Shown here piece by piece: positions 549 through 53,473 of a stretch of 53,473 bases of DNA (positions within the stretch are counted from its first letter, which is position 1; each line of letters begins with the position of its first letter). This stretch comes from Alphaproteobacteria bacterium (GTDB lineage Bacteria; Pseudomonadota; Alphaproteobacteria; Rs-D84), in assembly GCA_017554665.1 (NCBI GenBank), contig JAFZHX010000038.1:1-53473 (forward strand). The letters are read 5' to 3'. Position numbers and translations under genes: made by a program. The notes under the pieces were generated by a model, which saw only the letters and a program-made list of their open reading frames with translations, was not told where the DNA came from and did no database searches.

Positions 549-1409
549 ATGAAAGCACGACTATTATTTTTATCACTAATTATAACGGCCTATCCTGTAT
601 TATCAGATGCCGCGTCCAGTTGTTCACGCGCAAATCTCACAAAATGTTTAGATTCTGCCTGTGCGATTGGTATCTCTTCCAACCCGTCTGCGCGCTGTCA
701 ATACTGTGGTTCGACCAGTGCTGGCACACCTCCTAAAAACGTTATGAAAGCAATATCAGCCGGCGCATCTGCTAAATACAACATATCTGACAAAGATTTA
801 AAAAACGCTCCCAGCGATCCTGGCGAACGTTATGTGTGGGCAACAAAACAATGTATCGCCAAGGTTACAGGCTGCACACCTGACGATGTAACAGACACAT
901 ATGACAAGCTTATTGAACAGTCTTGTACAGCTGCTGGTGTTTCCGCAAAAATGGCAAAGTTGCAAGAAAAAGCAAAAAAGACCCGCACAAAATCCGACTG
1001 CGAATCGGAAATCACAGCTTGTTTAATAGAAGACAAGGCTTGCAGCTCTGATTATAGAAAATGCGAAGCGGATGCAAGCTTTAACAATTTCTTCTCGGCC
1101 TGTGGCGCCCAAGCTGCTGGTTGCGACAACTTTATATCAGAAATACGCGATGAATTAATCGCCGCTCGCGATAGCGCAATTAAGAACGCCGACAGCATAC
1201 TGGCAAAAATCGTTGCTTCATATCAGAACACGCGCGAAAACAAGCTAACCGAAACACTTAACGGTTGCCAAGACAACAAAAAATTCGACACCTGCGTAGA
1301 AACAGTATGTCAAAATAACATGCCAGACAAGTGCAACAGTCAGACAGAAAAAATCTCAGCTGCTCTGTTATGTAAATTCCACAAAACAGCTTGCGCTACT
1401 CTGGAATAA
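549..1409 (+). CDS. Secreted cysteine-rich protein A (286 aa), first gene of a 4-gene operon
   Basis: Signal peptide MKARLLFLSLIITAYPVLSDA. I counted about 20 Cys by eye. Motifs present are KCLDSAC and ACLIEDKACSSDYRKC, which are shared with the paralogs at 1434, 44903 and 47930. Confidence 0.85.
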   Translation: MKARLLFLSLIITAYPVLSDAASSCSRANLTKCLDSACAIGISSNPSARCQYCGSTSAGTPPKNVMKAISAGASAKYNISDKDLKNAPSDPGERYVWATKQCIAKVTGCTPDDVTDTYDKLIEQSCTAAGVSAKMAKLQEKAKKTRTKSDCESEITACLIEDKACSSDYRKCEADASFNNFFSACGAQAAGCDNFISEIRDELIAARDSAIKNADSILAKIVASYQNTRENKLTETLNGCQDNKKFDTCVETVCQNNMPDKCNSQTEKISAALLCKFHKTACATLE

Positions 1410-1433
1410 CGAAACAAAGGTAAAAACAAACAA

Positions 1434-3209
1434 ATGTCAAACGCATCAACAATTTTTAAAAGCAAATTCCTAACATCTATGTTTGGATGCCTGATTGCGT
1501 TATGCACATTATCGGTTTCACTAACAACAGCAAGAGCAGAAGATTATGACATCGCAATAAAGTCTTCTCAATTTGACGAAATATTAGGCGATTCAAACGA
1601 AGACACAACAACTGCAAGCGACAGCGCGCTTGCCGAAAAGATACGCAAACAGCGCGCCGCACTAAATGCCCAATCTGCCAAAGAAGCATCTACAAACAAG
1701 GCAAAATCAAGTGCTGCATCTGGCAAAAACGATTGCGACCAAAAATTACGCGCATGTATGAAGTCAAAATGTGGCGAAGATTACTCTAAATGTTCTGGCG
1801 ACACCGACACAACATGGGGCGACAAAATGGATACATGCCGTCGCGACACAACATGTACAGGTGAAGAATACAGACTATTCACAGCTGAAATCAAAGCCGA
1901 TCGCGACATGAATTCGAAATTATCATCATATACATCTATCATAGATTGCGGTGACAAATACAACGATTGCATAATAAAGGAATGCGGTCAAACATTTACA
2001 AAATGCCTCGGCAAATCAGCAGGCGACAAAGTTGTTCAAAAATGTTCAAAAATCGCCAACCAATGCAAAGAACAAGACAGCGGCCTTGCCTCACGCGCGA
2101 TGGAGGTATTTGCCAACCTGCGCCAAGAAGCAGAAAAATTAATCATACGCGATGAAAAGCGCTTATATGAATTACGCGACAAAATGCGCAACACATGCGA
2201 CCGTTTGGGTGCATTGTTTGACGAACGAACACTTGATTGTGTCTATAGTGTTGAATTATACGCAGGCGAAGACAACACCCTGCTTTCCTCCAAGAAAACA
2301 TATGCAGGTGGCACCTTTAATTGCCACCAAGACTGGTTCGGTGTTGATGTAACCACATTTAAAGAAAACGCATTCCGTCTAACTAAATCTCAAACATCCG
2401 CATCATCTGCAGCTTTGGGTGCAGGTGTTGGCGTTGGCGTTGGCGCATTAACATCTGGCGCACTTGATCGCGCCATAGACAGATCCAAATCTGAACGTGC
2501 ATTAGGCCAAGAACTGTGCGAATCAACTGGCGGCAAGTGGCAAAAAGCAATAAATAAATGTAAATGCGAAAGCACAAAGTCATTTGACGAAGAAACAGGT
2601 TGCCAAACAGACGACAAAAAAACAGAAAAAGAAGAAAATAAAAAATCGCGCGACAAGCAGAAAGAAGATAAAGCTAACGATAAAAACGCAAAGAAAGAAC
2701 TATGCGAACAAGCCGGCAAATGGGTTGGCGCTGTATGTTACTGCAACGATAAAACACATTCTTTTGACGATGTAAATGGTTGCACCGAAAACGCAAACAA
2801 GAAAAAGAGAGCTGACAACAAAGCAGAAAGACAAGAACAAAACGAATTAAACAAACTCAAAAAAAACAGCCAAGCTGAACAAGAGGCGCGTGACAAAAAA
2901 CTGTGCGAACTTAACGGCAAAGGAAAATGGAAGAACGGCACTTGCAAATGCACAACAGAAGGCGAAACTTACGACAAAGGCTCTGGCATTTGCACATCCG
3001 CACACAACACAGAACGTAAAGAAAACACAAAAGAAGATCAAGCTTCTATTGACAGAAAAAAACAATTATGTGATACATATAACGGCAAATGGACAGGCAA
3101 TACATGCGACTGTGGCGTTGGCAAAGACTGGGATGACAAGCTTAATATGTGCAAAAATAAATTTGCTGACATGAAAATAGAAGCGCCTGAAATAAAATTA
3201 TCACTATAA
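1434..3209 (+). CDS. Secreted cysteine-rich modular protein B (591 aa)
   Basis: It starts 24 nt after gene A. It has a signal/anchor sequence ending ARA|ED and the motifs ACMKSKCGEDYSKC and DCIIKECGQTFTKC. A glycine-zipper-like segment ALGAGVGVGVGALTSGAL follows. The C-terminus has four 4-Cys Trp-containing modules separated by K/E-rich linkers. Confidence 0.85.
   Translation: MSNASTIFKSKFLTSMFGCLIALCTLSVSLTTARAEDYDIAIKSSQFDEILGDSNEDTTTASDSALAEKIRKQRAALNAQSAKEASTNKAKSSAASGKNDCDQKLRACMKSKCGEDYSKCSGDTDTTWGDKMDTCRRDTTCTGEEYRLFTAEIKADRDMNSKLSSYTSIIDCGDKYNDCIIKECGQTFTKCLGKSAGDKVVQKCSKIANQCKEQDSGLASRAMEVFANLRQEAEKLIIRDEKRLYELRDKMRNTCDRLGALFDERTLDCVYSVELYAGEDNTLLSSKKTYAGGTFNCHQDWFGVDVTTFKENAFRLTKSQTSASSAALGAGVGVGVGALTSGALDRAIDRSKSERALGQELCESTGGKWQKAINKCKCESTKSFDEETGCQTDDKKTEKEENKKSRDKQKEDKANDKNAKKELCEQAGKWVGAVCYCNDKTHSFDDVNGCTENANKKKRADNKAERQEQNELNKLKKNSQAEQEARDKKLCELNGKGKWKNGTCKCTTEGETYDKGSGICTSAHNTERKENTKEDQASIDRKKQLCDTYNGKWTGNTCDCGVGKDWDDKLNMCKNKFADMKIEAPEIKLSL
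2511..3165 (+). repeat. Four copies of a roughly 30-aa 4-Cys module (C-x6-8-W-x4-6-C-x-C-x8-11-C) with charged linkers, coding
   Basis: The four copies are LCESTGGKWQKAINKCKCESTKSFDEETGC, LCEQAGKWVGAVCYCNDKTHSFDDVNGC, LCELNGKGKWKNGTCKCTTEGETYDKGSGIC and LCDTYNGKWTGNTCDCGVGKDWDDKLNMC. Confidence 0.85.
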
Positions 3210-3262
3210 CTGTCTAAGTAAAAATAGCTTATACACATTTCAAAACACCGCACAATAAGCGC

Positions 3263-3291
3263 TTGCACAAACATCAAAAAAATGCTAAAAT
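3263..3291 (+). promoter_or_regulatory. Possible internal promoter upstream of gene C
   Basis: TTGCAC (3263-3268), a 17-nt spacer with TGC, then TAAAAT (3286-3291). It sits in the 108-nt gap before the GTG start at 3318, which is preceded by AGAGAGA. Confidence 0.4.
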
Positions 3292-3317: not shown

Positions 3318-5192
3318 GTGTATCGTTTTTTGAATATTTTTATCGCATTAACATTATTTGCCCTGCCCGCATTCGGCGCTGCATATGCTACTACCTCTAC
3401 AAAAAAAGAAGAACCAGCAAAATCTGAAAATCAAGAATTTATATTCAAAGTCTCTGGTAAATTCATCGGTTACACAGGCTTGGATCCATCGGGGCTTAGT
3501 GTAAAAATCATTTCCCCAAAAAATTGTGTATTTATAGCACACAGGCAACAAATAATGAATCAGCTACCAGGTGCCTTAATTAACGACAGTATCTCATGCC
3601 CTACTGGTACAGCCAGTATTACACTGGAATTCAACATAGACAATAAAGGTAATGTCACTCACAAATACCAGATAAACAAAGCCAGCAAAATGGCCACTAT
3701 CAAGCTGTCCAAAACTAAAAAGAATTATAAGTTATCGGACATTGTATTAGAACCACTAACAGCTAGCTCGAAAGCACTGGAAGCAGCAAAAGCAAACAAA
3801 CCATCAGCGAACAACGCAAAATCAGCAACAACTACTGTCGGTCAAAAACCAAACAGCACAGTAAAACAAGAACAAACAACTAAAGAAAAATCAGGATCAG
3901 ACAAGACAGCAGAAACAGTTGTTCGCAACAATGAAATAGCAGATACAACACTTTTGTTAAATCCTGACGATACTTCTCCTTTCTCTGCTAACAGTGATGC
4001 CGATAATAACAAAGACGAAGACAAAGACACAAAGGTAGCACCTGCTCCTCAGGAAAAACAATCAACAGCTTCAACTGGTGGATATGAAGAAACTGATGCA
4101 GGAACCAAAGCAACATTAGAAACAAACGGTTTAAAAAAGTTTTGCTCGGATGAAGGTTATATAACAACAGACTCTTCTTCTGTCTATGGTATAGTAAAAG
4201 CAAATTGTAAAAAAGATACAAAAAGCGAAATAACATTTGTTTGCTACAAGTACAAAGCCGTCGCAATACCAAAACAAGCAATTAGCAAACACTTTGCAAA
4301 CTATTGTTTTAAAAAAGAAACAAATTCTGTAAAGTTTGAAACAGCAAATCGACCAAGCACTCATAGCAAAGGGAAAAAATGTCCAAATGTTACACCAGCT
4401 TGGAAAAAACAAAACAACGCTAATGCCGGCGCATGCGACCCACAAACTGGCGAACTATATATAACAGAATGTAAAGCTGATTATGTCGGCACAACTCGCG
4501 GTATCAGCAAAGACGGATACAAGTCCTGTAATTCAACTTCAAACACAACAGGAAACAATGATAACGAATTGAAAAAATTGTGCACAAAAGGCGGTGCTGG
4601 CTCTTGGGAAAACGATAACTGTATCTGCAAAAATACAACACATTCTTTTGACTCTGAGAAAGGCTGTGTCCAAGACAACGAAAAAACAGAAGAATTAAAG
4701 AAAAAATGTACCACTCCAAACACTTGGAATGAAAAACTGAAACAGTGTGAGTGCGAAAACAAAAAACAAAAATTTGACGAAAAAGCTGGAAAATGTGTTG
4801 ATACAGACGCAGAAACAGAAACAAACAACAATGACGGATCAGAAGCATTGTGTACAAAGGACGGTGCTGGCTCTTGGGCAGACGGCAAATGCACATGCAC
4901 AGACGAAACACATTCTTTCGACTCCAAGAAAGGCTGTATCCTGGACAAAAAGAAAGCAAAAGCTAAAAAAACAGAAGACTTAAAAAACAAGTGCAAAGCT
5001 CCAAACACTTGGAACGAAAAACTGAAAAAATGTAAGTGCGAAAACAAAAAACAAGAATTTGACGAAGAAGCTGGAACTTGCGTTGATGTAGCTGCTGATT
5101 ATAAAAACGCAGTTTCAAAACTGGAACAGCTTAAACAACAGCTGGATACAAAATTGGAAGAATTAAATAAAGAAGATGGCGAAAACGAATAA
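3318..5192 (+). CDS. Secreted cysteine-rich modular protein C (624 aa, GTG start)
   Basis: Signal peptide MYRFLNIFIALTLFALPAFGAAYA. It has a Ser/Thr/Lys/Asp-rich spacer, a Cys-rich middle region, and four copies of the 4-Cys W module also seen in gene B. The tail is coiled-coil-like (LEQLKQQLDTKLEELNKE). Confidence 0.85.
   Translation: MYRFLNIFIALTLFALPAFGAAYATTSTKKEEPAKSENQEFIFKVSGKFIGYTGLDPSGLSVKIISPKNCVFIAHRQQIMNQLPGALINDSISCPTGTASITLEFNIDNKGNVTHKYQINKASKMATIKLSKTKKNYKLSDIVLEPLTASSKALEAAKANKPSANNAKSATTTVGQKPNSTVKQEQTTKEKSGSDKTAETVVRNNEIADTTLLLNPDDTSPFSANSDADNNKDEDKDTKVAPAPQEKQSTASTGGYEETDAGTKATLETNGLKKFCSDEGYITTDSSSVYGIVKANCKKDTKSEITFVCYKYKAVAIPKQAISKHFANYCFKKETNSVKFETANRPSTHSKGKKCPNVTPAWKKQNNANAGACDPQTGELYITECKADYVGTTRGISKDGYKSCNSTSNTTGNNDNELKKLCTKGGAGSWENDNCICKNTTHSFDSEKGCVQDNEKTEELKKKCTTPNTWNEKLKQCECENKKQKFDEKAGKCVDTDAETETNNNDGSEALCTKDGAGSWADGKCTCTDETHSFDSKKGCILDKKKAKAKKTEDLKNKCKAPNTWNEKLKKCKCENKKQEFDEEAGTCVDVAADYKNAVSKLEQLKQQLDTKLEELNKEDGENE
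4575..5090 (+). repeat. Internal tandem duplication of about 270-285 bp, each unit encoding two 4-Cys modules
   Basis: ggtgctggctcttggg occurs at 4593 and 4863, and ccaaacacttggaa at 4716 and 5001. At protein level, LCTKGGAGSWENDNCICKNTTHSFDSEKGC plus KCTTPNTWNEKLKQCECENKKQKFDEKAGKC is duplicated as LCTKDGAGSWADGKCTCTDETHSFDSKKGC plus KCKAPNTWNEKLKKCKCENKKQEFDEEAGTC. Confidence 0.9.
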
Positions 5193-5204: not shown

Positions 5205-7097
5205 ATGAAAAAACTGTTTATAACATCTTTACTAACAATATTAACTTTACCTGCATTTGCAGAAAATGCGGCTAACCCTTTTGATAATGCTACAACAAAA
5301 GAAGAAGCTTGGACAATCTTTGAAGATAAAGCTTCGGCTATTTTAAAAGAATCTAAAGCAAAGTTGAAAAATTCTGAATATTCCAAATTGGAAAAACAGT
5401 ATAAAAATATGCTTGAAGACAAAAACGAAAAAACAAGCAAAAAAGATAAAAAGAAAAAAGACGAAGAACAAAATAAAAAGAAGTTATCGCCAGAAGAACA
5501 AGAACAAAAAATCTCGGAACTGCGCGACAATGCCGAAGCCATGAAGGAAAAAGAACAGTCCTTTGAAAACAAAGCGTTGGGTGCAGCAGCTATTGGCACA
5601 ACTGGTATGGGCGCGATGGAGCTAGCATCCGGACTTGCAGAAAAAACTGCAGACGAAGATGCAGAACGTTCAATGAAGGCTTATCTTGCTACATTTACTT
5701 GCAAATATGGCGACAAACGCGTCAAAGGCGGCACAATGAATGTAGAACTGCCTGGCGGAAACGAACTGATTAACCTGTACAGCGAATATGTAACATTAGC
5801 AAATGATTTGAAAGTTCGTAAAAACGCACTGGGCATGTTGCCAGGTATTGAGTCAGAATCTATCTTGGACAAATCTACAAGTGGATTGTATGACGATGTA
5901 AATATTGGTAAAACAGGTGGCGCATATACATCTTTGGCTCGCGCACTGATGGACCCAACTGGCGAAGATGCACAAAAATGGAATGCAGAAAAACAAGCTT
6001 CTGCTGACAAGGTGAAAAAAGGCGCAACAGCTGCTGGCCTTGGCGCAATTGGTGGCTTGATTGGAAACTTGGCTATCAATGGAAAATCTCCAAAAGAACG
6101 CTCGGAAGAAATAAATAAAAAATATGAACCTTTGAAAAAAGAATTCACAGAAGTTCAAGAAGAAATAGAAGAAAAACACAAAGAAAAACTCACCAAAGAA
6201 ACTTGCGCCAAATATGACGCAGTCGGTGAAAATATCGAAAGCAGTTGCTCTTGCTCTGATGAAAACAGTTATTGGGATTCTAACAATATACAATGCACAT
6301 CTTGTGAAGAAGATCAGATTGTTAACGAAGACAAAACAAGCTGCATACCAAAACCTGGACCAAGTTGCGAATTACAACCCGGCAATTTAACAGATGAAAA
6401 TTGCGCATGTATAAACGAAGCTGAAAAAGATGAAAATAATGCTTGTGTTTGTAATTTAACTGGCACATTTAATGCAAACTCATGCGAATGCAACGAACAT
6501 TCAACTAAGAATGGTAACGCATGTGCATGCGATTCGAATTACAAGCCTGACCCAAAAGCTCCTACTACTTGCATTCCAGAAGTAGCCGAAGTAGTAGCTG
6601 CTGAAGAACCAATACAAACATTCTCTTTCCCTTCGGATACATTCTTTGATGTTGGCAAAGCTACACTAAAAGACGATGCAGGTAGCCTGCTTAAAAAAAT
6701 AACAGATGTGATAAAACAAAAATATCCAGATAAAGCTGCTGAAATACTTGCATCATCATGCTTTACAATCAACGGATATGCAGACAGAACCGGCAATTAC
6801 AAAAAAAATCAAACCTTATCTGAAAGCCGCGCTCACTCGGTTGCAAAAGCATTGGTTACAGCTTCTGGTGGCAAGATAACAAACAATAGCTATGTAGTAT
6901 CTGGCAAAGGCGATACAGAATGCACAAGAACAGATTATCCAAAAAAAGCAGACCTCGCAAAATGTCGTCGTGTTGACATAGTGCTAAACTCAGGTTCTTG
7001 TTCCGCCCCTGTCGCAGAATCAGGCGATGGTGCAGCCAATAAAGCAAACACAATAGAAACAGCCACAAAAGTAGTGACAGGCATAATAAAAAAATAA
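5205..7097 (+). CDS. Secreted modular protein D (630 aa): K/E-rich coiled region, glycine-zipper segments, CxC-rich module, C-terminal OmpA-type peptidoglycan-binding domain
   Basis: It starts 12 nt after gene C. Signal peptide MKKLFITSLLTILTLPAFA. Glycine-zipper-like segments are ALGAAAIGTTGMGAMELASGLA and ATAAGLGAIGGLIGNLAI. CxC motifs occur repeatedly (CSC, CAC, CVC, CEC, CAC). The C-terminus carries the OmpA_C hallmarks FFDVGKATL, INGYADRTGNYKKNQTLSESRAHSVAKAL, SGKGD and CRRVDIVL. Confidence 0.85.
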   Translation: MKKLFITSLLTILTLPAFAENAANPFDNATTKEEAWTIFEDKASAILKESKAKLKNSEYSKLEKQYKNMLEDKNEKTSKKDKKKKDEEQNKKKLSPEEQEQKISELRDNAEAMKEKEQSFENKALGAAAIGTTGMGAMELASGLAEKTADEDAERSMKAYLATFTCKYGDKRVKGGTMNVELPGGNELINLYSEYVTLANDLKVRKNALGMLPGIESESILDKSTSGLYDDVNIGKTGGAYTSLARALMDPTGEDAQKWNAEKQASADKVKKGATAAGLGAIGGLIGNLAINGKSPKERSEEINKKYEPLKKEFTEVQEEIEEKHKEKLTKETCAKYDAVGENIESSCSCSDENSYWDSNNIQCTSCEEDQIVNEDKTSCIPKPGPSCELQPGNLTDENCACINEAEKDENNACVCNLTGTFNANSCECNEHSTKNGNACACDSNYKPDPKAPTTCIPEVAEVVAAEEPIQTFSFPSDTFFDVGKATLKDDAGSLLKKITDVIKQKYPDKAAEILASSCFTINGYADRTGNYKKNQTLSESRAHSVAKALVTASGGKITNNSYVVSGKGDTECTRTDYPKKADLAKCRRVDIVLNSGSCSAPVAESGDGAANKANTIETATKVVTGIIKK

Positions 7098-14097: not shown

Positions 14098-14266
14098 GAT
14101 GATATAGGTTAGCAATCAATTCAAATATTGGCAAGCATAATTTAAGCCATAAAAAAAATCACTTTTTATAAAAATCAAGTGTTTTATTTCAAAAATTTAA
14201 TTTCCACGGTAAATTTTTATACCTAAAAATATGATAAAATATGTATTACAGGGACGTAATGGAGAG

Positions 14267-15367
14267 ATGGAAAAATACTTAAACCAAATTTTGCTCGGTG
14301 ATTGTATTGAAATGATGCGTGGCATTCCAGACGCATCAGTCGATGCAGTATTTGCGGACCCTCCATACAACCTACAACTAGGCAGCAAAACATTATACCG
14401 TCCCGAAGACCAAACTGCTGCACGCGCTGTTCGTGACTCTTGGGACAGCTTTGAATCTTCTGAACAATACGATGAATTTACTCGTCAATGGCTGGCAGAA
14501 TGCAAACGCGTTCTAAAGCCAAATGGCGCAATGTGGACAATTGGCAGTTATCATAACATTTTCCGTGTTGGCTCTATTCTACAAGACATGGGCTTTTGGA
14601 TTTTAAATGACGTTGTTTGGGTTAAAACAAATCCAATGCCAAACTTTCGTGGCACTCGCTTTACAAACGCACACGAAACCTTAATCTGGGCGACACCGAC
14701 AAAAACAGGCAAATACACATTTAACTATGAAACTATGAAAAAGTTAAATGGTGGCAAGCAAATGCGTTCTGATTGGGATTTAAATATATGCTTGGGCGAA
14801 GAACGCGTCAAAGATGCAGACGGCAAAAGCCTGCATAACACACAAAAGCCACTGGATTTATTACATCGTGTAATACTGGCTTCAACCAAACCAGGCGATA
14901 TTATTCTTGACCCATTTATGGGCTCTGGCACAACGGCTGCTGCCGCTGTTGAATTGGGTCGTAAATTTATAGGTATTGAACGCGAACAAACCTATGTAGA
15001 AGCAGCCCGCCAACGCATTGCAAATGTAAAACCAATCGATTTAACAGACATAGAAGTTACAAAGCCAAAACGCGATGAAGTTCGTGTTGCTTTCAAAGAA
15101 TTAATTGAAGCAGGCTTGTTATACACAGGACAAACATTGGTCAGCCCACGTGGCGAACGTGTAATGATAACCCAAGACGGACAATTAACTCATCAGCTGT
15201 ATGGCAAAGCATCTATTCATGTTATGGCTGCGAAACTGCAACGCAGTGTCAGCTTTAACGGTTGGGATTATTGGTCTGCACAAAAACAAGACGGCTCTTT
15301 GGTACCAATTGACGAGCTACGCAAATACATACGCAATATCAAAGCAAATATTAAACAAGCCGCATAA
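14267..15367 (+). CDS. ccrM: CcrM-like N6-adenine DNA methyltransferase (beta class)
   Basis: LLGDCIEMM, FADPPYNL (motif IV), ILDPFMGSGTTAAAA (motif I) and a CcrM-type C-terminal extension are present. The start is the ATG at 14267 after GGAGAG. Confidence 0.85.
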   Translation: MEKYLNQILLGDCIEMMRGIPDASVDAVFADPPYNLQLGSKTLYRPEDQTAARAVRDSWDSFESSEQYDEFTRQWLAECKRVLKPNGAMWTIGSYHNIFRVGSILQDMGFWILNDVVWVKTNPMPNFRGTRFTNAHETLIWATPTKTGKYTFNYETMKKLNGGKQMRSDWDLNICLGEERVKDADGKSLHNTQKPLDLLHRVILASTKPGDIILDPFMGSGTTAAAAVELGRKFIGIEREQTYVEAARQRIANVKPIDLTDIEVTKPKRDEVRVAFKELIEAGLLYTGQTLVSPRGERVMITQDGQLTHQLYGKASIHVMAAKLQRSVSFNGWDYWSAQKQDGSLVPIDELRKYIRNIKANIKQAA

Positions 15368-15376
15368 AGAAAAAAA

Positions 15377-15407
15377 CAAATCCCCCAAACGGGGGATTTA
15401 TTTTTTT
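15377..15407. terminator. Bidirectional rho-independent terminator
   Basis: aaatccccc-aaac-gggggatttattttttt, located between convergent genes. Confidence 0.8.
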
Positions 15408-18845: not shown

Positions 18846-18877
18846 AAAAAAAATGTCCCGTTTGGGACATTTTTTTA
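18846..18877 (-). terminator. Rho-independent terminator after the giant autotransporter
   Basis: aaaaaaatgtccc-gttt-gggacattttttt. Confidence 0.75.
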
Positions 18878-24004: not shown

Positions 24005-24042
24005 TTTTTCTTCTTTTATTCCATTCCTAAATATGGTTATAA

Positions 24043-25377
<1,335 letters not shown>

Positions 25378-26032: not shown

Positions 26033-26111
26033 ATTCTTCCCCTTTGGTTGTTTCCGTAAATTCATCATAACATCCCCCTGCAAACTTTTGTTTAGGAACC
26101 TTTGCTAAACA

Positions 26112-26139: not shown

Positions 26140-26143
26140 AATA

Positions 26144-29702: not shown

Positions 29703-29806
29703 AGACTCTCTCCCTTTTATTCCAGACAAAGACATTATACCATAAAAAATAACACTTGTACAAACAATCCTATTTTTATAAAATTCTAATAACCAAGGAG
29801 ACAACA

Positions 29807-39467: not shown

Positions 39468-39495
39468 TAAAAAATCCCCCGTTGGGGGATTTTTT

Positions 39496-39497
<2 letters not shown>
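39468..39497. terminator. Rho-independent terminator
   Basis: aaaaatccccc-gtt-gggggatttttttt. Confidence 0.8.
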
Positions 39498-41727
<2,230 letters not shown>

Positions 41728-41818: not shown

Positions 41819-41846
41819 TTGACAAAATAAAAGCATTGTCTATAAT
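41819..41846 (+). promoter_or_regulatory. Consensus sigma70 promoter placed for a leaderless transcript
   Basis: TTGACA (41819-41824), a 16-nt spacer, TATAAT (41841-41846), then 6 nt to the ATG at 41853. There is no SD. Confidence 0.6.
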
Positions 41847-41852: not shown

Positions 41853-42758
41853 ATGAGCAAAATAATTAACTTTTTCAAAAACCACAAGCACTTTGTAAAC
41901 TGGACAGTGTGTTACACAGCAGCCGTATGGTCTTTATTGTATTTTATGTTTGGTTTCAACATATTCAAAGGACATCACTGGCACATATTATCACACGCTC
42001 ACCTCCACGGTTTCATAGGTTTTGTCTTTGGAGCATTACTACTCTCTATTCTCCCGATATACCTATCAACAAGCACGATTATCATACGCACAAAAAAACC
42101 ATTAATTACGATTCCGCTACCTAAACTAGGCAAAAAATCAGAAGAACCAAAAAAACAAGAAGACTCCAAAGAAAATAAAGAAGACGAAAAAGCAGAGGAT
42201 TTTTCCCACATACCTTTGGAAATACGTCCTGCATTTGCGCGTGCAAAAAACCATCCCTTGGACATACAAATAAAATCTCCAACTTCTATCGCTTCAAATT
42301 CTGAAGCAACAGAACAAGAAACCGAGCTACCTATCCCTACAGATTTCGACATTTCTTTCTCGCCCGAAGAAATAGAAGACATCCAAGAAGAAAGCATGCC
42401 TATATTCAAAGACTTTAACTTTGAAGACAGCACAACAGACACACAAACAAACAGCATTACCGAACACCTAGACAAAGCCGGCATCAAATACTCTACTGTT
42501 AACGGCCTTATTGTTACAGACACTCAGGCAATAGCAGTCCACAACGATTCGGATTTTTGGGTTACAGACAATGAAAATTGGTTTGCGACCGGCAAAAGCA
42601 TTCCATCTCCTATTAATTCTGTAAAAGAAATTGCTGCACAGTTCAAAGTAACCCCTGTATTATACTTGGCGGAACAAAACATTATGGACATTGAAACTTT
42701 GATTCCACAGTGGGAATCCGAAGGCATAAAAGTCATCCAAGACCTATCTGAATTATAA
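41853..42758 (+). CDS. Hypothetical membrane protein (301 aa)
   Basis: It has two N-terminal TM helices, an acidic K/E/D-rich linker and a C-terminal globular region. I recognise no family. Confidence 0.65.
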   Translation: MSKIINFFKNHKHFVNWTVCYTAAVWSLLYFMFGFNIFKGHHWHILSHAHLHGFIGFVFGALLLSILPIYLSTSTIIIRTKKPLITIPLPKLGKKSEEPKKQEDSKENKEDEKAEDFSHIPLEIRPAFARAKNHPLDIQIKSPTSIASNSEATEQETELPIPTDFDISFSPEEIEDIQEESMPIFKDFNFEDSTTDTQTNSITEHLDKAGIKYSTVNGLIVTDTQAIAVHNDSDFWVTDNENWFATGKSIPSPINSVKEIAAQFKVTPVLYLAEQNIMDIETLIPQWESEGIKVIQDLSEL

Positions 42759-44862: not shown

Positions 44863-44889
44863 AAAAAACCCGCGGAATAACCGCGGGTT
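44863..44889 (-). terminator. Rho-independent terminator after gene F
   Basis: The minus strand reads aacccgcgg-ttatt-ccgcgggtt followed by tttttt. Confidence 0.75.
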
Positions 44890-44902: not shown

Positions 44903-47900
44903 TTACATTTGTAATGTTGTACATTGCGGACTCGAAGACTCATCCCAAGTTTCACAATATTGCTCACCAAACATAGGAGCTTTGGTTTTCTTACAATGAG
45001 AATAAACAACGCATTTTTCACATGTTAAATCAGTTGGATTAAACACAGTTGTAATATCTTCTTTGTAATTCCAATATTCAACTTTGTATTCACCACGAAG
45101 TTTTTGCGTTTCTGCGTACTCAAAAGCTTCTGAAGCAGCCGAATTTGCAACAGCAATACCTGTCGCCAAACCAGCCGACACAGCTGCACCAACAGAACCA
45201 ATAACAGCAGCAGAAATTCCTGCAGCAACCACAGAAGCTGAAGTAGCTGCCGTAGCCGCTGCCGCTGTAGCGAATGAAGCTGCAACGGAAGCCGCAAAAC
45301 CACCGGTAGTAGCAGCGAATGAAGCTGTAGCAGCGGCGGTAGCAGCAGCGGCGGCTGTAGAAGTAGCAGCAGCCTGTGCAGCACCCAGCCCACCAACAGA
45401 AGCTAACGACGCAGCACCACCAACCCCAAACGTACAAACAGTAACCGCAGTAATCGCCAATGCAAGTATAATACCCAAAAATATTCCACCACCAACACTA
45501 GCCGGAGGGGTTGTAGATTTTGGCATAGCAGAACCTTCTGCCAAATTCACACAAGACTGACGTGCCAATTCACGATGTCTATCTTTAAAGTTTTCACCCG
45601 CTATTTCCGCCTGACGTTCTGAAATTTTTATATAATCTTGCAAGGAACGTTCTGTCAAGCTATCGTATTTGGCATAATAATTACTCTTTGCTTTTTGCAA
45701 TAATTTTGCTGCCATAATTGTACGGGTCTGCTTGGTCAGATTTGGGAAACGCGCAACCTTTTCAGTATTAAGACCTGAAACCTTGCGTCCTTCCATACAT
45801 GCTGCAACCGTAACATCAGATTCAATAGAATCCATAACGCTATCCAATGACTTTTTAAACACACTAAATTCATTGTTCAAACGTTCTTTCTGCTTGTCTG
45901 TCATAAATAGTTTACGATCTTCCAGCTTTTGCATATAATCATCCAAGCCTTCAAAATTACCATCTACACCAACAGAAATAGATTCCCAATAAATAGGCAC
46001 ATCAATCAACACAGCATAAGGTGTTACAGGCCCCAATTCACCAGACACTGAATTTTCCACACGTCCCAAATCTTTATCTGGAATCATAGACTGTTCTGCG
46101 AAACAATGATCTGTTAACACAAAACCATCTTGATACAATTGGTATTCGCAAATTTTATATTCCAACGAAGTTGTACCAAACGTATTCAAATCTATCAGAC
46201 TTGCGCAATCCATATTTTCGCCACAAACGCGTTTAGTTGCAGTTTCCAATGCAGCTTCACAAGTTGCCAACATTTCGTTATCGATATTCAAGATAATACC
46301 TTGAACCATCTTATTCAAATTATCATAAACTTCATTAGATGTCAGTTTTTTATCATGAACACTTTGACAACCAGTCAGTTTATCATATGGGCACATTCTG
46401 ATAATTTGTTCTGTACTTAGACCAACACACTGAGAATAATCAGCACCACATCTATCTTCCGAACTTAAACATTCTTTTAATTCATTAGTACAAGCATCAA
46501 CTTTCATCGCAGCCAGTCTTGCCAACACATAATCCCAAATGCTAGACTCACGCGCTTTTACAGGGTCCGAGCTATTGATACCACAAGCATCCAACTGCAC
46601 CTTACAAACATTCAGCATTGTTTCTGGTCTGGACAAGCACATATCATAAGAACCATCTGGATCATTTGGATCCATATGATCTTTACATGCATTTCTAAAG
46701 CAGTCAGAAACATTACCGATACAATCTTTTCTCATATTATCTTCGGCAATCGTTTCAGCTAATTTTAATTGCGGAGCCACATCTTTTACAAAAACATCAA
46801 AGACCTGATCTGCTACCTTGGTACACTGTTTAAAAACTGCTTCACACAAAGGCTTTTTTGCAACCAAAATATCATAAGTAGAAGCAGAAATTTCTATATT
46901 AGAAACAGCCCCCTGAATTTTATAAGTAGTTTGTTTTTTATCCTTCTCTCTGCTATTAGTAGCACTAATGGCAGAAACAGAGGCGCACTTTGAAAAATCA
47001 TTACCACAACCTGCTGTTGTTTGCATACATTCTTTAAATGCTGTTGTACATTGCCCCAAATCAAACTTATTTGCATTTTTCGCATTATCAAAAGCAACTG
47101 TACGCAAAGCACCTTCGACTTGACGTTTTTTTGCCTTTGCATCACTAAGTTGTTTTTTCAAAGCATTATTATATGCAGCACAGTCAGAGTTAATTGCCCC
47201 GTCATACACCGAAGACATAAAAGACAATTTATCGCCACATTGTGTAATTCTTTCTGCACAAACTTCATGTGCCTTTCTCTTTAACTGAGCACCAATTTCA
47301 CCATCGGACCAAGCCTGTTTGATAGATATTCTATTTGCACTAACTTCGCTGGTAAAGTTGACTTCCGTTTCACCCGACAACGCGGCTTCAATTGTTTTTT
47401 CACCCAAATTAGCAATTTTAAATGCTTCTTGATCAATCTCTTCAATTTCTGCAAGCAATTTATCAAATGAACGGTATTTATCACTGCACACACAGCGACC
47501 ACCGCTAAAGTTTTCAATTACACAGAAAGAGTCCATACAACCGTTATAAATCTGCTTACAATCATCACTAACAACTACATTTTCAGCAGCACCCGCAACT
47601 TTGGTTCCTGTACTCACAACCTTTTGAGTAGAGGCAGCACGCGCTGAAACCGTTGGTACCTTTGAAGCAGCAGGCACACCACCACCACGCACAGCTGTTG
47701 TACGACCACCAGTTTTACCAGCTGCAGGAGCAGCTGCCTGTGACGCAGTCTTAGCGTTTGTTGCCGCACGTGCAGACACCCCCCCTTTTTTTGGCGCAGC
47801 TGATACAGCAGCATTACCCCTTTGCACATTTCCCCTGCGTGCAGGTGCGCAAAATGCACCATTAATTACGGTGCATAATGCTAAAGTTACGATTGATATA

Positions 47901-47914
47901 TTTTTTCCACACAT
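44903..47914 (-). CDS. Secreted cysteine-rich protein F (1003 aa) with a long Ala/Gly-rich hydrophobic region
   Basis: It has a signal peptide and a basic A/R/G/P/T/K tract (VSARAATNAKTA..AAGKTGGRTT). Motifs are GCMDSFC, ECMQTTAGCGNDFSKC and ECLSSEDRCGADYSQC. An Ala/Gly/Ser/Thr hydrophobic stretch of about 130 aa precedes a Cys-rich C-terminus. Confidence 0.85.
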   Translation of the reverse strand: MCGKNISIVTLALCTVINGAFCAPARRGNVQRGNAAVSAAPKKGGVSARAATNAKTASQAAAPAAGKTGGRTTAVRGGGVPAASKVPTVSARAASTQKVVSTGTKVAGAAENVVVSDDCKQIYNGCMDSFCVIENFSGGRCVCSDKYRSFDKLLAEIEEIDQEAFKIANLGEKTIEAALSGETEVNFTSEVSANRISIKQAWSDGEIGAQLKRKAHEVCAERITQCGDKLSFMSSVYDGAINSDCAAYNNALKKQLSDAKAKKRQVEGALRTVAFDNAKNANKFDLGQCTTAFKECMQTTAGCGNDFSKCASVSAISATNSREKDKKQTTYKIQGAVSNIEISASTYDILVAKKPLCEAVFKQCTKVADQVFDVFVKDVAPQLKLAETIAEDNMRKDCIGNVSDCFRNACKDHMDPNDPDGSYDMCLSRPETMLNVCKVQLDACGINSSDPVKARESSIWDYVLARLAAMKVDACTNELKECLSSEDRCGADYSQCVGLSTEQIIRMCPYDKLTGCQSVHDKKLTSNEVYDNLNKMVQGIILNIDNEMLATCEAALETATKRVCGENMDCASLIDLNTFGTTSLEYKICEYQLYQDGFVLTDHCFAEQSMIPDKDLGRVENSVSGELGPVTPYAVLIDVPIYWESISVGVDGNFEGLDDYMQKLEDRKLFMTDKQKERLNNEFSVFKKSLDSVMDSIESDVTVAACMEGRKVSGLNTEKVARFPNLTKQTRTIMAAKLLQKAKSNYYAKYDSLTERSLQDYIKISERQAEIAGENFKDRHRELARQSCVNLAEGSAMPKSTTPPASVGGGIFLGIILALAITAVTVCTFGVGGAASLASVGGLGAAQAAATSTAAAAATAAATASFAATTGGFAASVAASFATAAAATAATSASVVAAGISAAVIGSVGAAVSAGLATGIAVANSAASEAFEYAETQKLRGEYKVEYWNYKEDITTVFNPTDLTCEKCVVYSHCKKTKAPMFGEQYCETWDESSSPQCTTLQM

Positions 47915-47929: not shown

Positions 47930-50900
47930 TTAATATTGTGTATCTGTACATTCTTCTACTGGATCTTCCCATGCTTTACAATAACGAGAGTCTATCTTAC
48001 AACAGTCTTTATATCCTCTCTTATCTGTACAGTTTTGTTTACGGACACACTTTCTACATACCAAAGTCGATGTATTAAATGTAATAGTTGTTGTTTCTTT
48101 AAAGTAAGGTTCATCGTTCGAGCTGGTTGCAGAGTATTCACCCTGAATATCACCACCCGAACCATCTATAGAGATCGCTTGCCCCAAGCAAGAAGCTGCC
48201 AAAACAGGAATCTTGTCTTTTAGTTCCTGAGCCTTGCGAACTTCAACAATACGTTGTGCCAACTTTACATTCTCTTCCGAAATCTTGGTTTGCAGTTCTT
48301 TATACTTCTTATCATAGTTCGCTTGTGCTTTACGCAAAGCAGTCTGTGCGATAATTGTTTTCAAAGAATCTGTCAACCCTGGGAAGCGACCTTCTTCCAA
48401 TTCTTCGCCATCAGTGTTTTCAGAAGTAATCTTCTTTCCCTTATCCAATCCCTGTACTTTGCGACCAGTCATACAGTACTGAACCTGTGGGTCATTTTCA
48501 ATTGATTGAATAGTAGCCATAATCGCATTTTTCAACGACCCCAAGTCAGAAGCAATCGCATCAGCTTTATCGCTAGAGATTGCTGTACCCACTGCCGAAG
48601 ACAAACCTGTCGCACACAAATGTTTTTGCGTTTTGTTATTATTGGCAACATCCAAAGTAATTTCACAGTTCGCATCTGGTTGTTCCAACGAGAAAGTAAT
48701 CTTATTCCATTTTATGGTACCATCAATAACACCCGAGAACATAGGAGGACCATCATAAGTAACAACCCTGTGCGCTTTTGATCTGTTCTCCATAGCTTTC
48801 GCCATCATAAGTTTAACTTCTCCACTCAAAGTTTCTCCATTATCAATCAAATCAGCTGCTTCTTTTCTATATTTGTCTGCCAGGTCTAGATAACTCTGAG
48901 AAGCATCATCTAATGTTGCTTCACCTAATAAAACCTTGTCAGAAATCAATGAAATATCCTGCACACAAGCGGAATAGTTACCACTTCCATCATCCTGACA
49001 AATCTTGTATTCCAAAGCATGCTGACCAACACCATTTGGCAAAGACATCGATTCGCAAGAATCTGTAGAACCACACGTCTTAATCATAGCTTTGTTCACA
49101 GCTTCCTGACACTGTTCAATCATTTTGTTATCAATATTCAATATCAACCCCTGAGCAACAGAATATATATATTCTTCTTGCTCTGTTACGGTGTCTCCAT
49201 ATGAAGAAGAATAACATGCTGTCAACTTATCGCGATGACACATCCCCATAATTGTATATGTATCCAAACCAATACAGTTAGTATAATCTTTACCACAAAC
49301 ATCCTCTGACTGTATACAATCTCTAACTTCTGTTGAACATGCGTCAACTCTCATAGCATTAAGTCTTGCTACAATAAATCCCCAAATCGGACTTGCCATA
49401 GCAGCAGTTTTGCTCTCTGCATTAATAGCACAGTTATTCAAAGGAACCTTACAAGCGAACAACATTGTTTCTGGTCTGGACAAACACATGTCATAAGAGC
49501 CGTCTGGGTCATTTGGATCCATGTTATCTTTACATGCTTTTTTAAAGCAGTCAGAAACATTACCAATACAGCTTTGTCTTGATTTGTCTTCTGCAATTAA
49601 TTCAGCAGATTTTAATTGCGGAGCAACTTCACGCATAAACACATCCCAAACTTGATCTGCAACCTTGGTACATTGTTTCAACACAGTTTCACACAAAGGT
49701 TTTTTCGCCATCAAAGCATCATAAGTAGATGCAGAAACTTCTATACTAGAAACCGCACCCCTAATCTGATAGTTTTTGGCTGCTTTACTTGTACTACGTA
49801 CTGTACTTGTTGAATCCAACGCAGATATAGTTGCACAACCCGAAAAATCTGTACCACAACCTGCAGTTGTCTGCATACATTCTTTAAATGCGATTGTACA
49901 CTGACCTAAGTCAAACTTGTTTGCATTCTGTTCTTTTTCAAATGCAGTTTCACGTAAAGCCTTTTCTGCAGCTTGCAACTTCTGAGCACTTTGCGTCTTT
50001 TTCTGCTTCATAACATTTTCATATGCTGTACAGTCTGACTTAATTCTTTGAACATACATCATCTGCAACATATTTATATCTTTTTCACATTCAGGCATCT
50101 GAGCTTTACACAATTTAGCAGCAGCTTTCTGCAACTCATCACCCTGCTTGCCATCAATTGGATCTACATAAGTTTCAACTTCTGCAAATGCATCTTCTTC
50201 ATCATCTTCAAAACTCATAGGTGTAGTCCACAAGCTCAAATCCAAAGTCTTTTTTTTCTTGGTTTCTTCCTTGACTGCTGGCTTATTGCTATCCTTAATC
50301 GAATTAACGACTTCATTTACCTTAGCAATCGCAGCATCCGCATCTTCACCCATTTCCAGCTTTTCAACACCCAAAGTTGCCATTTGATACGACAAATCAT
50401 CTAATTTCTCAATTTCTAACAAAATAGCATCTAATTCTACATTCCTATCACTACAAAGACATCTACCACCACTTTCATTGTCTAGCATACAGAAAGAGTC
50501 CATACAACCTTCATACTTGTTACGACATTCTTCACTAACAACCGTGTTTTGAGTTGCTTCTTGCACCTTGGTTCCAGTACTAATAACACTTTGCTTTTTA
50601 GCAGCACGCGCAGAAACAGCAGGCGCACCAGTCTTTGGCGCAGCTTTGGTATTAGCCGCAGGCGCATTAGGAGTTGTACCACTGCGCGCAGATGTCGTAC
50701 GACCACCTGTCTTACCAGCAGCAGGAGCACCAGCCTTTGGCGCTGTCTTGGCATTAGTCGCAGCACGCGCGGACACCGGCTTAGAAGCAGTAGTTTTCGC
50801 ATTCGAACCAGCCGAAGTCGCAGGCGCAGCACCACCCCTACCAGCAGGACGACCAGCACGAGCAGCAGCCGAAACCCCAGTCGTATCAAGCGTTGCATAC

Positions 50901-50935
50901 AATAAACCAAGTGTTAAAAATAGTATTTTTTTCAT
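47930..50935 (-). CDS. Secreted cysteine-rich protein G (1001 aa), tandem paralog of F
   Basis: It lies 15 nt upstream of F. It has the same basic N-terminal tract plus GCMDSFC, ECMQTTAGCGTDFSGC and DCIQSEDVCGKDYTNC. The block DPNDPDGSYDMCLSRPETML is identical to that in F. Confidence 0.85.
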   Translation of the reverse strand: MKKILFLTLGLLYATLDTTGVSAAARAGRPAGRGGAAPATSAGSNAKTTASKPVSARAATNAKTAPKAGAPAAGKTGGRTTSARSGTTPNAPAANTKAAPKTGAPAVSARAAKKQSVISTGTKVQEATQNTVVSEECRNKYEGCMDSFCMLDNESGGRCLCSDRNVELDAILLEIEKLDDLSYQMATLGVEKLEMGEDADAAIAKVNEVVNSIKDSNKPAVKEETKKKKTLDLSLWTTPMSFEDDEEDAFAEVETYVDPIDGKQGDELQKAAAKLCKAQMPECEKDINMLQMMYVQRIKSDCTAYENVMKQKKTQSAQKLQAAEKALRETAFEKEQNANKFDLGQCTIAFKECMQTTAGCGTDFSGCATISALDSTSTVRSTSKAAKNYQIRGAVSSIEVSASTYDALMAKKPLCETVLKQCTKVADQVWDVFMREVAPQLKSAELIAEDKSRQSCIGNVSDCFKKACKDNMDPNDPDGSYDMCLSRPETMLFACKVPLNNCAINAESKTAAMASPIWGFIVARLNAMRVDACSTEVRDCIQSEDVCGKDYTNCIGLDTYTIMGMCHRDKLTACYSSSYGDTVTEQEEYIYSVAQGLILNIDNKMIEQCQEAVNKAMIKTCGSTDSCESMSLPNGVGQHALEYKICQDDGSGNYSACVQDISLISDKVLLGEATLDDASQSYLDLADKYRKEAADLIDNGETLSGEVKLMMAKAMENRSKAHRVVTYDGPPMFSGVIDGTIKWNKITFSLEQPDANCEITLDVANNNKTQKHLCATGLSSAVGTAISSDKADAIASDLGSLKNAIMATIQSIENDPQVQYCMTGRKVQGLDKGKKITSENTDGEELEEGRFPGLTDSLKTIIAQTALRKAQANYDKKYKELQTKISEENVKLAQRIVEVRKAQELKDKIPVLAASCLGQAISIDGSGGDIQGEYSATSSNDEPYFKETTTITFNTSTLVCRKCVRKQNCTDKRGYKDCCKIDSRYCKAWEDPVEECTDTQY

Positions 50936-51025: not shown

Positions 51026-51056
51026 AAAAAAAAGTCCTCTAACCAGAGGACTTTTT
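51026..51056 (-). terminator. rplQ terminator
   Basis: agtcctct-aacc-agaggact flanked by A- and T-runs. Confidence 0.75.
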
Positions 51057-51076
51057 ATCAAATCGCATTACAGAAA

Positions 51077-52805: not shown

Positions 52806-52904
52806 ATTTTTTCCTTTTAGCTTAGTTTATTATTTTCGCCAAATAGCCGCACATACATCGTATGACGCAGGGGAAATTTTATATTACAAATACAAAAAAG
52901 TCAA

Positions 52905-52929
52905 TAAAAAACCGCCCAATCGGGCGGTT
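52905..52929 (-). terminator. Rho-independent terminator after gene H
   Basis: accgccc-aatc-gggcggt with a T-run on the minus strand. Confidence 0.75.
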
Positions 52930-52930
52930 A

Positions 52931-53473
52931 TTATTTCATTTGACACGCCATACCGGCTTCTTCTATTACAGAAGTATTCGCTGGTCCTAAATCCGCTGTC
53001 CAAGACTTTTGAACACCTTTGTTACAATTGGCACGACAATATCCATCAGAGTTTCCTTTTTTATTAAGAACCAAGTATTTTCCTTCTGGACAAGATCTAG
53101 CTATACATTTTCCTTTGTATATCCAAGAAGTTGCAACAGAAGCATTTCCTGGATTATCTTTTTTATATTCCTCCGGTGTACACTTGTCATGATGCTTACG
53201 TTGATTCTTGGCTTTCAAAGGAACATCATCCCATGTCAGTGGAAGCGCTGGAGTTGTTTCTACAACAGATGGAGTTGTTTCTACAACAGATGGAGTTGTT
53301 TCTACAACAGATGGAGTTGTTTCTACAACAGATGGAGTTGTTTCTACAACAGATGGGGTTGTTTCTACAACAGATGGAGTTGTTTCTACAACAGATGGAG
53401 TTGTTTCTACAACAGATGGGGTTGTTTCTACAACAGATGGGGTTGTTTCTACAACAGATGGGGTTGTTTCTAC
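52931..53473 (-). CDS. Repeat-containing protein H with a Cys-rich C-terminal domain; 5' end off-window
   Basis: The frame stays open from the window edge through the (PSVVETT)n repeats into ...PALPLTWDDVPLKAKNQRKHHDKCTPEEY... The C-terminal domain has 6 Cys. The ORF-track start at 53218 is only an internal TTG. Confidence 0.75.
   Translation of the reverse strand, partial: VETTPSVVETTPSVVETTPSVVETTPSVVETTPSVVETTPSVVETTPSVVETTPSVVETTPSVVETTPSVVETTPALPLTWDDVPLKAKNQRKHHDKCTPEEYKKDNPGNASVATSWIYKGKCIARSCPEGKYLVLNKKGNSDGYCRANCNKGVQKSWTADLGPANTSVIEEAGMACQMK
53249..53473. repeat. 21-bp tandem repeat, about 10.7 copies; coding, heptad PSVVETT on the minus strand
   Basis: The unit is tggagttgtttctacaacaga. 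The only variation is A/G at one position (ggagtt vs ggggtt), which is synonymous (ACT vs ACC, Thr). Confidence 0.9.

Follow-up and report, generated by a model that had tools for sequence, protein, structure and literature searches.

The 53,473-nucleotide stretch of DNA analyzed here (contig JAFZHX010000038.1 of assembly GCA_017554665.1, the whole of which is hereafter called the window) encodes eight cysteine-rich exported proteins. We found that these genes are a real and previously undescribed feature and belong to a conserved, lineage-specific cluster of several new Cys-scaffold families that is fragmented in this genome. A preliminary description of the window, made from its letters and translations, had listed the eight genes and estimated that they occupied ~15.2 kb, or ~28% of the window. 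All eight open reading frames (ORFs) were found; together they measure 15,198 bp, or 28.4% of the 53,473 nt. Their Cys contents, in window order, are 7.0, 5.6, 4.2, 3.3, 3.4, 4.2, 4.2, and 3.3%, compared to 0–1.6% in most other genes of the window. All seven N-termini that are visible carry Sec-like signal peptides with a basic n-region, a hydrophobic core and an AxA-like cleavage site. Of the remaining gene (52931–53473), which lies on the minus strand and extends past the window edge, only the 3′ part is included; its full-length orthologues also begin with a signal peptide. The proposal that the proteins are exported, Cys-rich and lineage-specific is supported by these analyses, as is the proposal that they had not been described before. 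No match to Pfam or NCBIfam at E ≤ 1 was found for the eight proteins except an OmpA domain in one of them, all database homologues are either unnamed or annotated as "hypothetical protein," and our literature search found no paper discussing these proteins, only general descriptions of Enterousia/Rs-D84 genomes.

The window has ~39% GC and an even composition, is part of a bacterial chromosome and contains the housekeeping genes grpE, tpiA, nrdR, eno, ssb, leuS, pgk, rnhB, tsf, rpsB, rplQ, and rpoA. It also contains a gene for a CcrM-type N6/N4 DNA methylase with a RAMA domain (14231–15367, plus strand), an enzyme typical of Alphaproteobacteria. Relatives of the largest Cys-rich protein of the window were found at 338 places among 185,579 species-representative genomes, and for the comparison of gene order the window proteins were mapped onto the best 79 of these 338 related loci (labeled L001, etc.). 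Nearly all of the 79 loci are from gut metagenome-assembled genomes deposited as Candidatus Enterousia, Alphaproteobacteria bacterium or uncultured Rickettsiales, and a circular genome of 958,618 bp, OZ007020.1, is among them. We assign the window to an alphaproteobacterium of the Candidatus Enterousia type (order Rs-D84), a gut lineage with genomes of <1 Mb. Members of Rs-D84/Ca. Enterousia are widespread in the guts of humans, livestock, poultry, and termites. The Rs-D84 genomes are reported to be <1 Mb, to have no tricarboxylic acid cycle, no respiratory chain (neither aerobic nor anaerobic respiration) and no standard uptake transporters, and to keep RodA/MreB; the lineage is predicted to depend on partners, and the authors of that study inferred an obligate symbiotic or parasitic lifestyle (PMC12306168).

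Modules of the cysteine-rich proteins

The genes of interest are named by the letter g followed by their start coordinate in the window. The family of g44903 and g47930 is referred to as family A, the helical unit with heptad-spaced Cys as module A, and a repeat with four Cys as module B. The genes are:

g549, 549..1409, plus strand: exported, all-helical protein of 286 aa with 20 Cys; the minimal carrier of module A
g1434, 1434..3209, plus strand: mosaic protein of 591 aa
g3318, 3318..5192, plus strand: accessory protein of 624 aa with a signal peptide, an N-terminal domain, a low-complexity linker and four module-B repeats
g5205, 5205..7097, plus strand: protein of 630 aa with a signal peptide, a Lys/Glu-rich region, glycine-zipper segments, a C-x-C-rich region and a C-terminal OmpA domain
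g39496, 39496..41727, minus strand: exported protein of 743 aa with a Gly-rich spacer, a very conserved Cys-containing domain of ~230 aa (core at aa 108–340) and two glycine-zipper segments
g41853, 41853..42758, plus strand: polytopic membrane protein of 301 aa; a member of the cluster that the preliminary description missed
g44903, 44903..47914, minus strand: family-A paralogue of 1003 aa with a hydrophobic, Ala/Gly-rich hairpin near the C-terminus (aa ~805–915)
g47930, 47930..50935, minus strand: family-A paralogue of 1001 aa without the C-proximal hairpin
g52931, 52931..53473, minus strand: last 180 aa of a Cys-rich protein whose stalk consists of VETTPS(V) tandem repeats; a separate mosaic family

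Judged from their sequences, the eight proteins are best regarded as a network of mosaics assembled from at least four private modules rather than as a single paralogous family. Five of the genes had previously been linked by two recurring motifs. All the quoted strings are present, but they link four genes (g549, g1434, g44903, and g47930), as the looser variant in g39496 has no significant profile match to module A. The motif C-x6,7-C-[LM]-x-S-x-C occurs four times and C-x5,7-C-x2-D[YF]-x2-C five times, compared to the 0.003 and 0.007 occurrences, respectively, expected from composition-preserving shuffles. Given that both patterns were defined post hoc, after the data had been seen, the conservation of the cysteines provides stronger and independent support. 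Across 121 members of family A and 34 orthologues of g549, the motif cysteines do not vary. All 20 Cys of g549 are invariant in these 34 orthologues and in a second alignment of 49 sequences, and family A has 38 conserved Cys columns (37 invariant and one at 99% in 121 full-length members with 43–60% identity), all of which are common to g44903 and g47930. The Cys counts are thus even in g549 and family A, but the N-terminal domain of g1434 has 15 invariant Cys, an odd number.

Module A is a core of 25–45 residues with the pattern C-x6-C-x4/6-C-x6-C, in which D[YF] stands two residues past the third Cys. The C-x6-C (i/i+7) spacing occurs 6, 5, 11, and 12 times in g549, g1434, g44903, and g47930, respectively, compared to ~1 expected; it occurs three times in g39496 (P = 0.03) and not at all in g3318, g5205, and g52931. 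Orthologue alignments were built from the related loci, and hidden Markov models (HMMs) were searched against 9,486 ORFs. The g549 HMM matched the g1434 family at 3.8e-7 and 24 family-A proteins at 1e-4 to 1e-2, with zero false matches outside these families. Profile-to-profile comparison with hhalign gave E-values of 9.5e-6 for g1434 and g549, 2.8e-5 and 3e-4 for g549 and two module copies of family A, and 4.4e-5 and 1e-4 for g1434 and family A, whereas reversed-profile controls gave E ≥ 0.1. For this core of ~25–45 residues, the profile E-values with their clean controls show that the shared strings are not chance matches. The core was found by profile methods and is invariant in orthologues for g549, the N-terminal domain of g1434, g44903, and g47930; for g39496, g3318, g5205, and g52931, no cross-family HMM match to module A was found, and hhalign probabilities were ≤2%.

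All-against-all BLASTP of the eight proteins gave three genuine links. The proteins g44903 and g47930 are 41% identical over ~900 aa and are paralogues, aa 101–187 of g1434 match aa 533–624 of g47930 (E = 1.7e-5), and g3318 matches the C-terminus of g1434 (E = 5e-8). In addition, the Cys spacing of the entire g549 (aa 25–282) parallels that of aa 137–502 of family A. Co-alignment of g549 and family A with MAFFT placed 17 of the 20 Cys columns in register, compared to 11–15 in reversed or block-permuted controls. As the controls reach such values, we do not claim that full-length collinearity between g549 and family A is proven; global alignment of g549 with the N-terminal half of family A (hhalign -glob) yielded a meaningless alignment of six columns.

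The members of family A share a layout that consists of a signal peptide, a basic Ala/Pro/Gly/Arg-rich region of ~120 aa, a long helical Cys-bearing region, a variable middle and a small Cys-containing beta domain at the C-terminus. In g47930, the basic region is disordered and the helical heptad-Cys region spans aa 137–660. In the AlphaFold2 (AF2) models, the basic region has a predicted local distance difference test score (pLDDT) of <50, while the g47930 model as a whole consists mostly of long helices (pLDDT 65.5) and that of g549 is all-helical (pLDDT 69). Neither model matched a PDB structure in Foldseek at E < 1, and profile searches of PDB sequences with the family-A, g549, g41853, and g39496 alignments returned nothing below E = 0.1. 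The alignment of family A is indel-rich, with 1519 columns for ~1000 aa, and the hydrophobic C-proximal segment is found in 28 of 30 g44903 orthologues. A first search with g47930 retrieved 916 homologues, and only 909 of 1.84 billion cluster representatives matched a family-A profile; family A is therefore narrow. Two to four very divergent extra family-A paralogues (22–38% identity) are found a few kb from the main copy in L012, L014, L024, L041, L049, and L053, and the family is therefore expanded in parts of the lineage.

The mosaic character is most apparent in g1434. Its signal peptide is followed by two module-A units (aa 101–211), then by an F-x-C-x2-D-x-FG motif with a glycine-zipper segment (aa ~291–345) and finally by four copies of module B (aa 362–575). 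The g1434 family has 725 homologues, all of which are unnamed. The F-x-C-x2-D-x-FG motif followed by a glycine zipper is shared by aa 291–364 of g1434 and aa 323–392 of g39496 (hhalign probability 86%, E = 5e-6). Module B is ~32 aa long, with the pattern C-x(n)-W-x(n)-C-x-C-x(n)-[FYW][DN]-x(n)-C and a Cys spacing of C-x11-13-C-x-C-x12-13-C. Regular-expression and HMM searches identified four copies in the C-terminal half of g3318, as in that of g1434, and module B is also weakly present in two g5205 orthologues. No EGF-like or other curated Cys-repeat model in Pfam or NCBIfam matched module B significantly, and its four Cys differ from the six of EGF. Among the 79 related loci, g3318 has a single homologue (in L016, upstream of rpoA). 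Given that g1434 is followed directly by g5205 in other genomes, g3318 is an insertion peculiar to this genome. The stalk of g52931 is encoded by a 21-bp tandem repeat (53249–53473) with 10.7 copies of 98% identity, and the near identity of these repeats suggests recent expansion or copy-number variation. Orthologues of g52931 were found at 9023–10915 of L073 (51% identity) and 2344–4866 of L016, and g3318 and g52931 are linked only transitively, via a mosaic protein in L016.

The profiles of g39496, g5205, and g41853 detected only their own orthologues among the 9,486 ORFs. The C-terminal domain of g5205 (aa 480–573) is an OmpA-type, peptidoglycan-binding domain, as PF00691 matched at 48.5 bits (cut-off 27.2; E = 1.2e-12), and g5205 orthologues carry CarboxypepD_reg together with OmpA (PF00691). 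The protein has 14 conserved Cys and a hydrophobic Gly-rich segment at aa 273–291, and its signal peptide ends in AFA|E, without a lipobox Cys. It is not a member of YiaD_Gzip_OmpA (NF053611), for which it scored 56.3 bits (E = 3.5e-15), under the equivalog cut-off of 175. In g39496, ~21 Cys columns are conserved among 50 sequences, together with many invariant aromatic and charged residues. Neither g39496 nor g41853 has a Pfam or PDB match, and a Pfam scan of 21 g39496 orthologues returned low-complexity noise only. Glycine-zipper-like or GxxxG hydrophobic segments are found in g1434, g5205, g39496 (two), and g52931 orthologues; among the Gly-zipper models (Gly-zipper_Omp/YMGG/Rick_17kDa_Anti), the only Pfam signal was that of one g39496 orthologue with Gly-zipper_YMGG (E = 0.092). 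The g41853 protein has one non-conserved Cys, three hydrophobic segments at its N-terminus with transmembrane segments at aa 19–71, a His-rich transmembrane region, an acidic linker and a conserved C-terminal domain.

Gene order in the window and in related genomes

In the preliminary description, the position of the genes among core genes was taken as a sign that a family had expanded and dispersed, as opposed to a single island. The comparison of related loci does not bear this out, as in most relatives the genes are contiguous beside rpoA-rplQ and low in copy number. The commonest order is rpoA, rplQ, a DUF3419-like gene, family A (one or two genes in tandem), g41853 on the opposite strand, g39496, g5205, g1434, and g549, which is seen in L009, L015, L023, L031, L034, L066, L070, L076, and the 914-kb contig L080. 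Among the 45 related loci of ≥20 kb, g39496 and g41853 are ≤10 kb from family A in 35, g1434 is in 35, and all three are in 27. Wherever g549 was found, it adjoins g1434 (34 of 34 loci), and g39496 and g41853 are adjacent in 51 loci and always divergently paired in other genomes. Family A mostly has one or two genes per locus. In L080, the intact cluster spans ~12 kb, or ~1.3% of the contig, and the eight window genes plus g41853 total ~16 kb.

In the window and its closest relatives (L001, L003, L016, and L057), rpsB-tsf is inserted between family A and g41853, and the g549–g5205 block of the window lies ~32 kb away, beside grpE-tpiA. Since the genes are clustered in most relatives, the ancestral state was one cluster, of which the four loci of the window are fragments. 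Median identity to the window is 39–58% for the cluster proteins and 91–97% for rpoA, rplQ, rpsB, and tsf at the same loci. Such fast divergence with unchanged cysteines fits proteins that would be exposed and built on a fixed disulfide scaffold. A horizontally transferred island was considered and rejected, as GC content and composition are uniform.

The following transcription signals were found near these genes:

41819..41846, plus strand: perfect sigma-70-like promoter TTGACA-16-TATAAT (a consensus match only), which ends 7 nt before the ATG of g41853
52910..52929, minus strand: terminator-like hairpin directly after g52931
51029..51056, minus strand: terminator-like hairpin between rplQ and g47930
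44867..44889, minus strand: terminator-like hairpin after g44903 and before rpsB
39476..39489, minus strand: terminator-like hairpin after g39496

The hairpins at 51029–51056 and 44867–44889 bracket a bicistronic g47930–g44903 unit. Given the hairpins after g52931, rplQ, g44903, and g39496, the Cys-rich genes are likely to be transcription units of their own rather than passengers of ribosomal operons. The position of the promoter suggests that the g41853 transcript may be leaderless or nearly so.

Two further observations were made on the related loci. The DUF3419-like gene (a weak Pfam match; ~250–290 aa) is found in ~45 of them, where it separates either rplQ from family A or tsf from g41853 (e.g., 9092–9838 of L080, minus strand, and 16822–17646 of L001, plus strand), and was not found in the window by tblastn. 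It should also be noted that L020 (CAVGNU010000007.1), a contig with the Enterousia-type order rpoA-rplQ-family A, was deposited as Bacteroides fragilis, which is probably a binning or contamination error.

Possible functions of the cluster

Directly observed are the export signals, the invariance of the cysteines, their even counts in g549 and family A, the sharing of modules, the OmpA domain and the clustering of the genes. Based on these sequence features, we propose, with a probability of roughly 0.5, that the proteins may form a disulfide-braced scaffold or coat in the cell envelope. The mosaic proteins, built from a few private modules, would be exported by the Sec system, and their helical modules would be locked by intramolecular disulfide staples between heptad-spaced Cys on neighboring helices. 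The proteins would reside in the periplasm or outer envelope, where glycine-zipper hairpins would anchor several of them in the membrane and g5205 would tie the assembly to peptidoglycan via its OmpA domain. The result would be a stable, protease-resistant scaffold or coat that maintains the envelope, establishes contact with the partner cells that this auxotrophic bacterium needs, or does both.

The nearest analogies to known systems are functional, not evolutionary. Like chlamydial OmcB/OmcA, which act with MOMP, these are Sec-exported, Cys-rich (4–7%) proteins of the envelope in a bacterium that has a reduced genome and depends obligately on partners, and their conserved cysteines would likewise brace the envelope through disulfides. 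The window gene at 15406–18678 also has Chlam_PMP repeats, though it lies outside the cluster. However, none of the eight proteins matched the OmcB/OmcA Pfam families at E ≤ 1 or otherwise resembled them in sequence, and the Enterousia proteins consist largely of helices that carry heptad-spaced Cys. A further difference is that peptidoglycan machinery is retained in the Enterousia lineage (SLT and OmpA in the window; RodA/MreB, PMC12306168). Intermolecular disulfide cross-linking within an outer-membrane complex is a further mark of the chlamydial proteins.

A second analogy is with the twin-CX9C/CHCH proteins of the mitochondrial intermembrane space, which are helical hairpins with paired inter-helix disulfides. 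There, as here, Cys recur at a fixed helical periodicity on consecutive helices of extracytoplasmic proteins, which suggests disulfide staples. The spacing is, however, x6 (i/i+7) in the window proteins rather than x9 or x3, units of 4–6 Cys are concatenated into proteins of 286–1000 aa, and there is no sequence or Foldseek similarity. The Cys-rich surface coats of gut protists, such as the Giardia VSP/HCMP proteins and ciliate immobilization antigens, also consist of abundant exported proteins with a fixed Cys framework and a variable remainder, and the protease-rich gut is common to the comparison. In contrast to those CXXC-rich eukaryotic proteins, which form large, antigenically switching multigene families, the Enterousia genes have one or two syntenic copies, almost no CXXC and bacterial Sec signals. 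Finally, g5205, the only one of the set to do so, resembles the OmpA/Pal/YiaD anchors, with a bona fide OmpA_C domain after glycine-zipper-like segments and YiaD_Gzip_OmpA as its best NCBIfam match; unlike YiaD, it scores 56 vs. 175 bits, has no lipobox and has extra coiled-coil and C-x-C-rich regions.

Several points weigh against the proposed scaffold or coat. Neither experiment nor homology ties these proteins to a function or location. They have no lipobox, beta-barrel or recognizable secretion-system signal, so that surface exposure is unproven and a periplasmic location is the default. The confidence of the AF2 models is moderate (pLDDT 65–69; predicted template modeling score 0.33–0.38), and the 15 conserved Cys of the g1434 N-terminal domain are odd in number. 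Moreover, synteny in small genomes can persist without functional coupling. Rs-D84 reportedly has no respiratory chains (PMC12306168), and the usual quinone-dependent oxidation by DsbB/VKOR may therefore be missing as well. A search with E. coli DsbA/DsbB sequences and a CxxC regular expression found no Dsb-like gene in the window or ~1.6 Mb of related loci, a sample that covers a few per cent of any genome and is too small to decide the matter.

The proteins could instead be secreted or surface adhesins or effectors that act on a partner cell (host epithelium, protist or bacterium), with the Cys scaffold stabilizing binding domains whose variable loops carry specificity. We regard this as possible, at clearly lower odds than the scaffold or coat. 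Fast divergence outside the cysteines, the indels of family A, the repeat-rich, stalk-like g3318 and g52931 (VETTPS, 10.7 copies), the predicted partner dependence of the lineage (PMC12306168) and the extra distant family-A paralogues in the six loci named above are all consistent with it. The core members are, however, single- or dual-copy, syntenic across the order and located beside housekeeping operons, no secretion-system signal or dedicated transporter was seen in the cluster, and the OmpA and glycine-zipper features point to residence in the envelope.

It is unlikely that the cysteines serve as metal ligands or redox-active thiols (for periplasmic metal storage or buffering, or for Fe-S or Zn sites) in an anaerobe without classical oxidative folding. 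The reported loss of aerobic and anaerobic respiration in Rs-D84, the reducing gut lumen as habitat and the sampled DNA with no Dsb-like ORF would all suit such a role, although the Dsb search included no more than a few per cent of any single genome. Against it stand the Sec signals of the proteins, their even numbers of invariant Cys (20 and 38) and the near absence of CxxC and His ligand motifs; the dominant i/i+7 spacing on helices also characterizes helix-helix staples rather than metal clusters.

The single family of Cys-rich paralogues, expanded and dispersed among core genes, that had first been suggested is improbable. True paralogy of g44903 and g47930 (41% identity), the presence of module A in four genes and the four places that the genes occupy in the window would agree with it, but the profiles of g39496, g5205, and g41853 match only their own orthologues, C-x6-C is missing from g3318, g5205, and g52931, and most relatives have the genes side by side, in one or two copies each. 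Chance similarity of low-complexity, Cys-rich sequence can be dismissed almost entirely for the core of ~25–45 residues. Co-alignment controls do give 11–15 Cys columns in register against the real 17 of 20, but shuffles never reach the observed motif counts, the cross-family hhalign/HMMER E-values of 1e-4 to 4e-7 have clean controls and no off-family match among 9,486 ORFs, and the motif residues are invariant across orthologues.

Two other origins were tried and rejected. A phage or defense origin found no relevant match in PHROGs or PADLOC, which gave OmpA/MotB-like matches in g5205 only, plus two marginal matches (E = 3e-4 and 6e-3) to unrelated PHROGs. The proteins are not autotransporter passengers either, as none of the eight matched PF03797, which only the neighboring gene at 15406–18678 has.

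Other features of the window and significance

The preliminary description had counted three autotransporters and estimated that ~47% of the window encodes exported proteins. The autotransporter at 15406–18678 is confirmed by Pfam (PF03797 and Chlam_PMP repeats), while the other two have no Pfam autotransporter match. The 1728-aa protein encoded at 18875–24061 has no Pfam match at all, and in the S8 subtilase encoded at 26102–28024 Pfam recognizes the protease domain alone; the C-termini of both (...SYRF and ...NIRF, respectively) nevertheless resemble beta strands. Our rough count of exported sequence is higher than the estimate, at ~34 kb (~63%) with signal peptides, lipoboxes or membrane anchors. 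A further exported protein that resembles a lipoprotein, has 14 Cys (3.5%) and lacks a Pfam match is encoded at 28605–29807 (minus strand); it was not among the eight genes listed previously. At the start of the window, a 45-bp tandem repeat at 1–112 (2.5 copies, 100% identical) encodes PAPTPAPKPVVKDTV repeats, which are carried by a partial minus-strand protein (1–400) with an N-terminal hydrophobic anchor and a start near nt 400. A choloylglycine (bile-salt) hydrolase family protein with a signal peptide is encoded at 35039–36118 (plus strand), and it and the CcrM-type methylase are retained in a genome of <1 Mb.

We know of no route by which Rs-D84 obtains metabolites beyond its own synthesis. 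It is conceivable, though we consider it doubtful, that the cluster encodes an order-defining, disulfide-stapled envelope or contact apparatus of a hitherto unknown kind with which these ultra-small, non-respiring gut alphaproteobacteria would attach to, or draw metabolites from, partner cells. It would combine helical heptad-Cys scaffolds with glycine-zipper anchors, a tether of the OmpA type and, in g41853, a membrane partner of its own. If so, the invariant extracytoplasmic Cys (20 in g549, 38 in family A and more elsewhere) would imply an unrecognized anaerobic route of oxidative folding, because the lineage apparently has no quinone-linked respiration.

Lineage-specific exported proteins of the "hypothetical" kind are to be expected in such organisms, which tempers the significance of the finding. 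Nevertheless, because so much conserved exported sequence has no relatives elsewhere, the cluster is a prime candidate for a structure that defines the envelope or partner contact of the lineage. It offers the 286-aa g549 as a minimal module, the conserved domain of g39496 and the membrane partner g41853 as targets, provides annotation pipelines with family definitions for hundreds of "hypothetical proteins," and raises the question of how an apparently non-respiring anaerobe oxidizes dozens of invariant cysteines. The cluster offers a concrete way into the biology of the envelope and of partner contact in this widespread, uncultured lineage.

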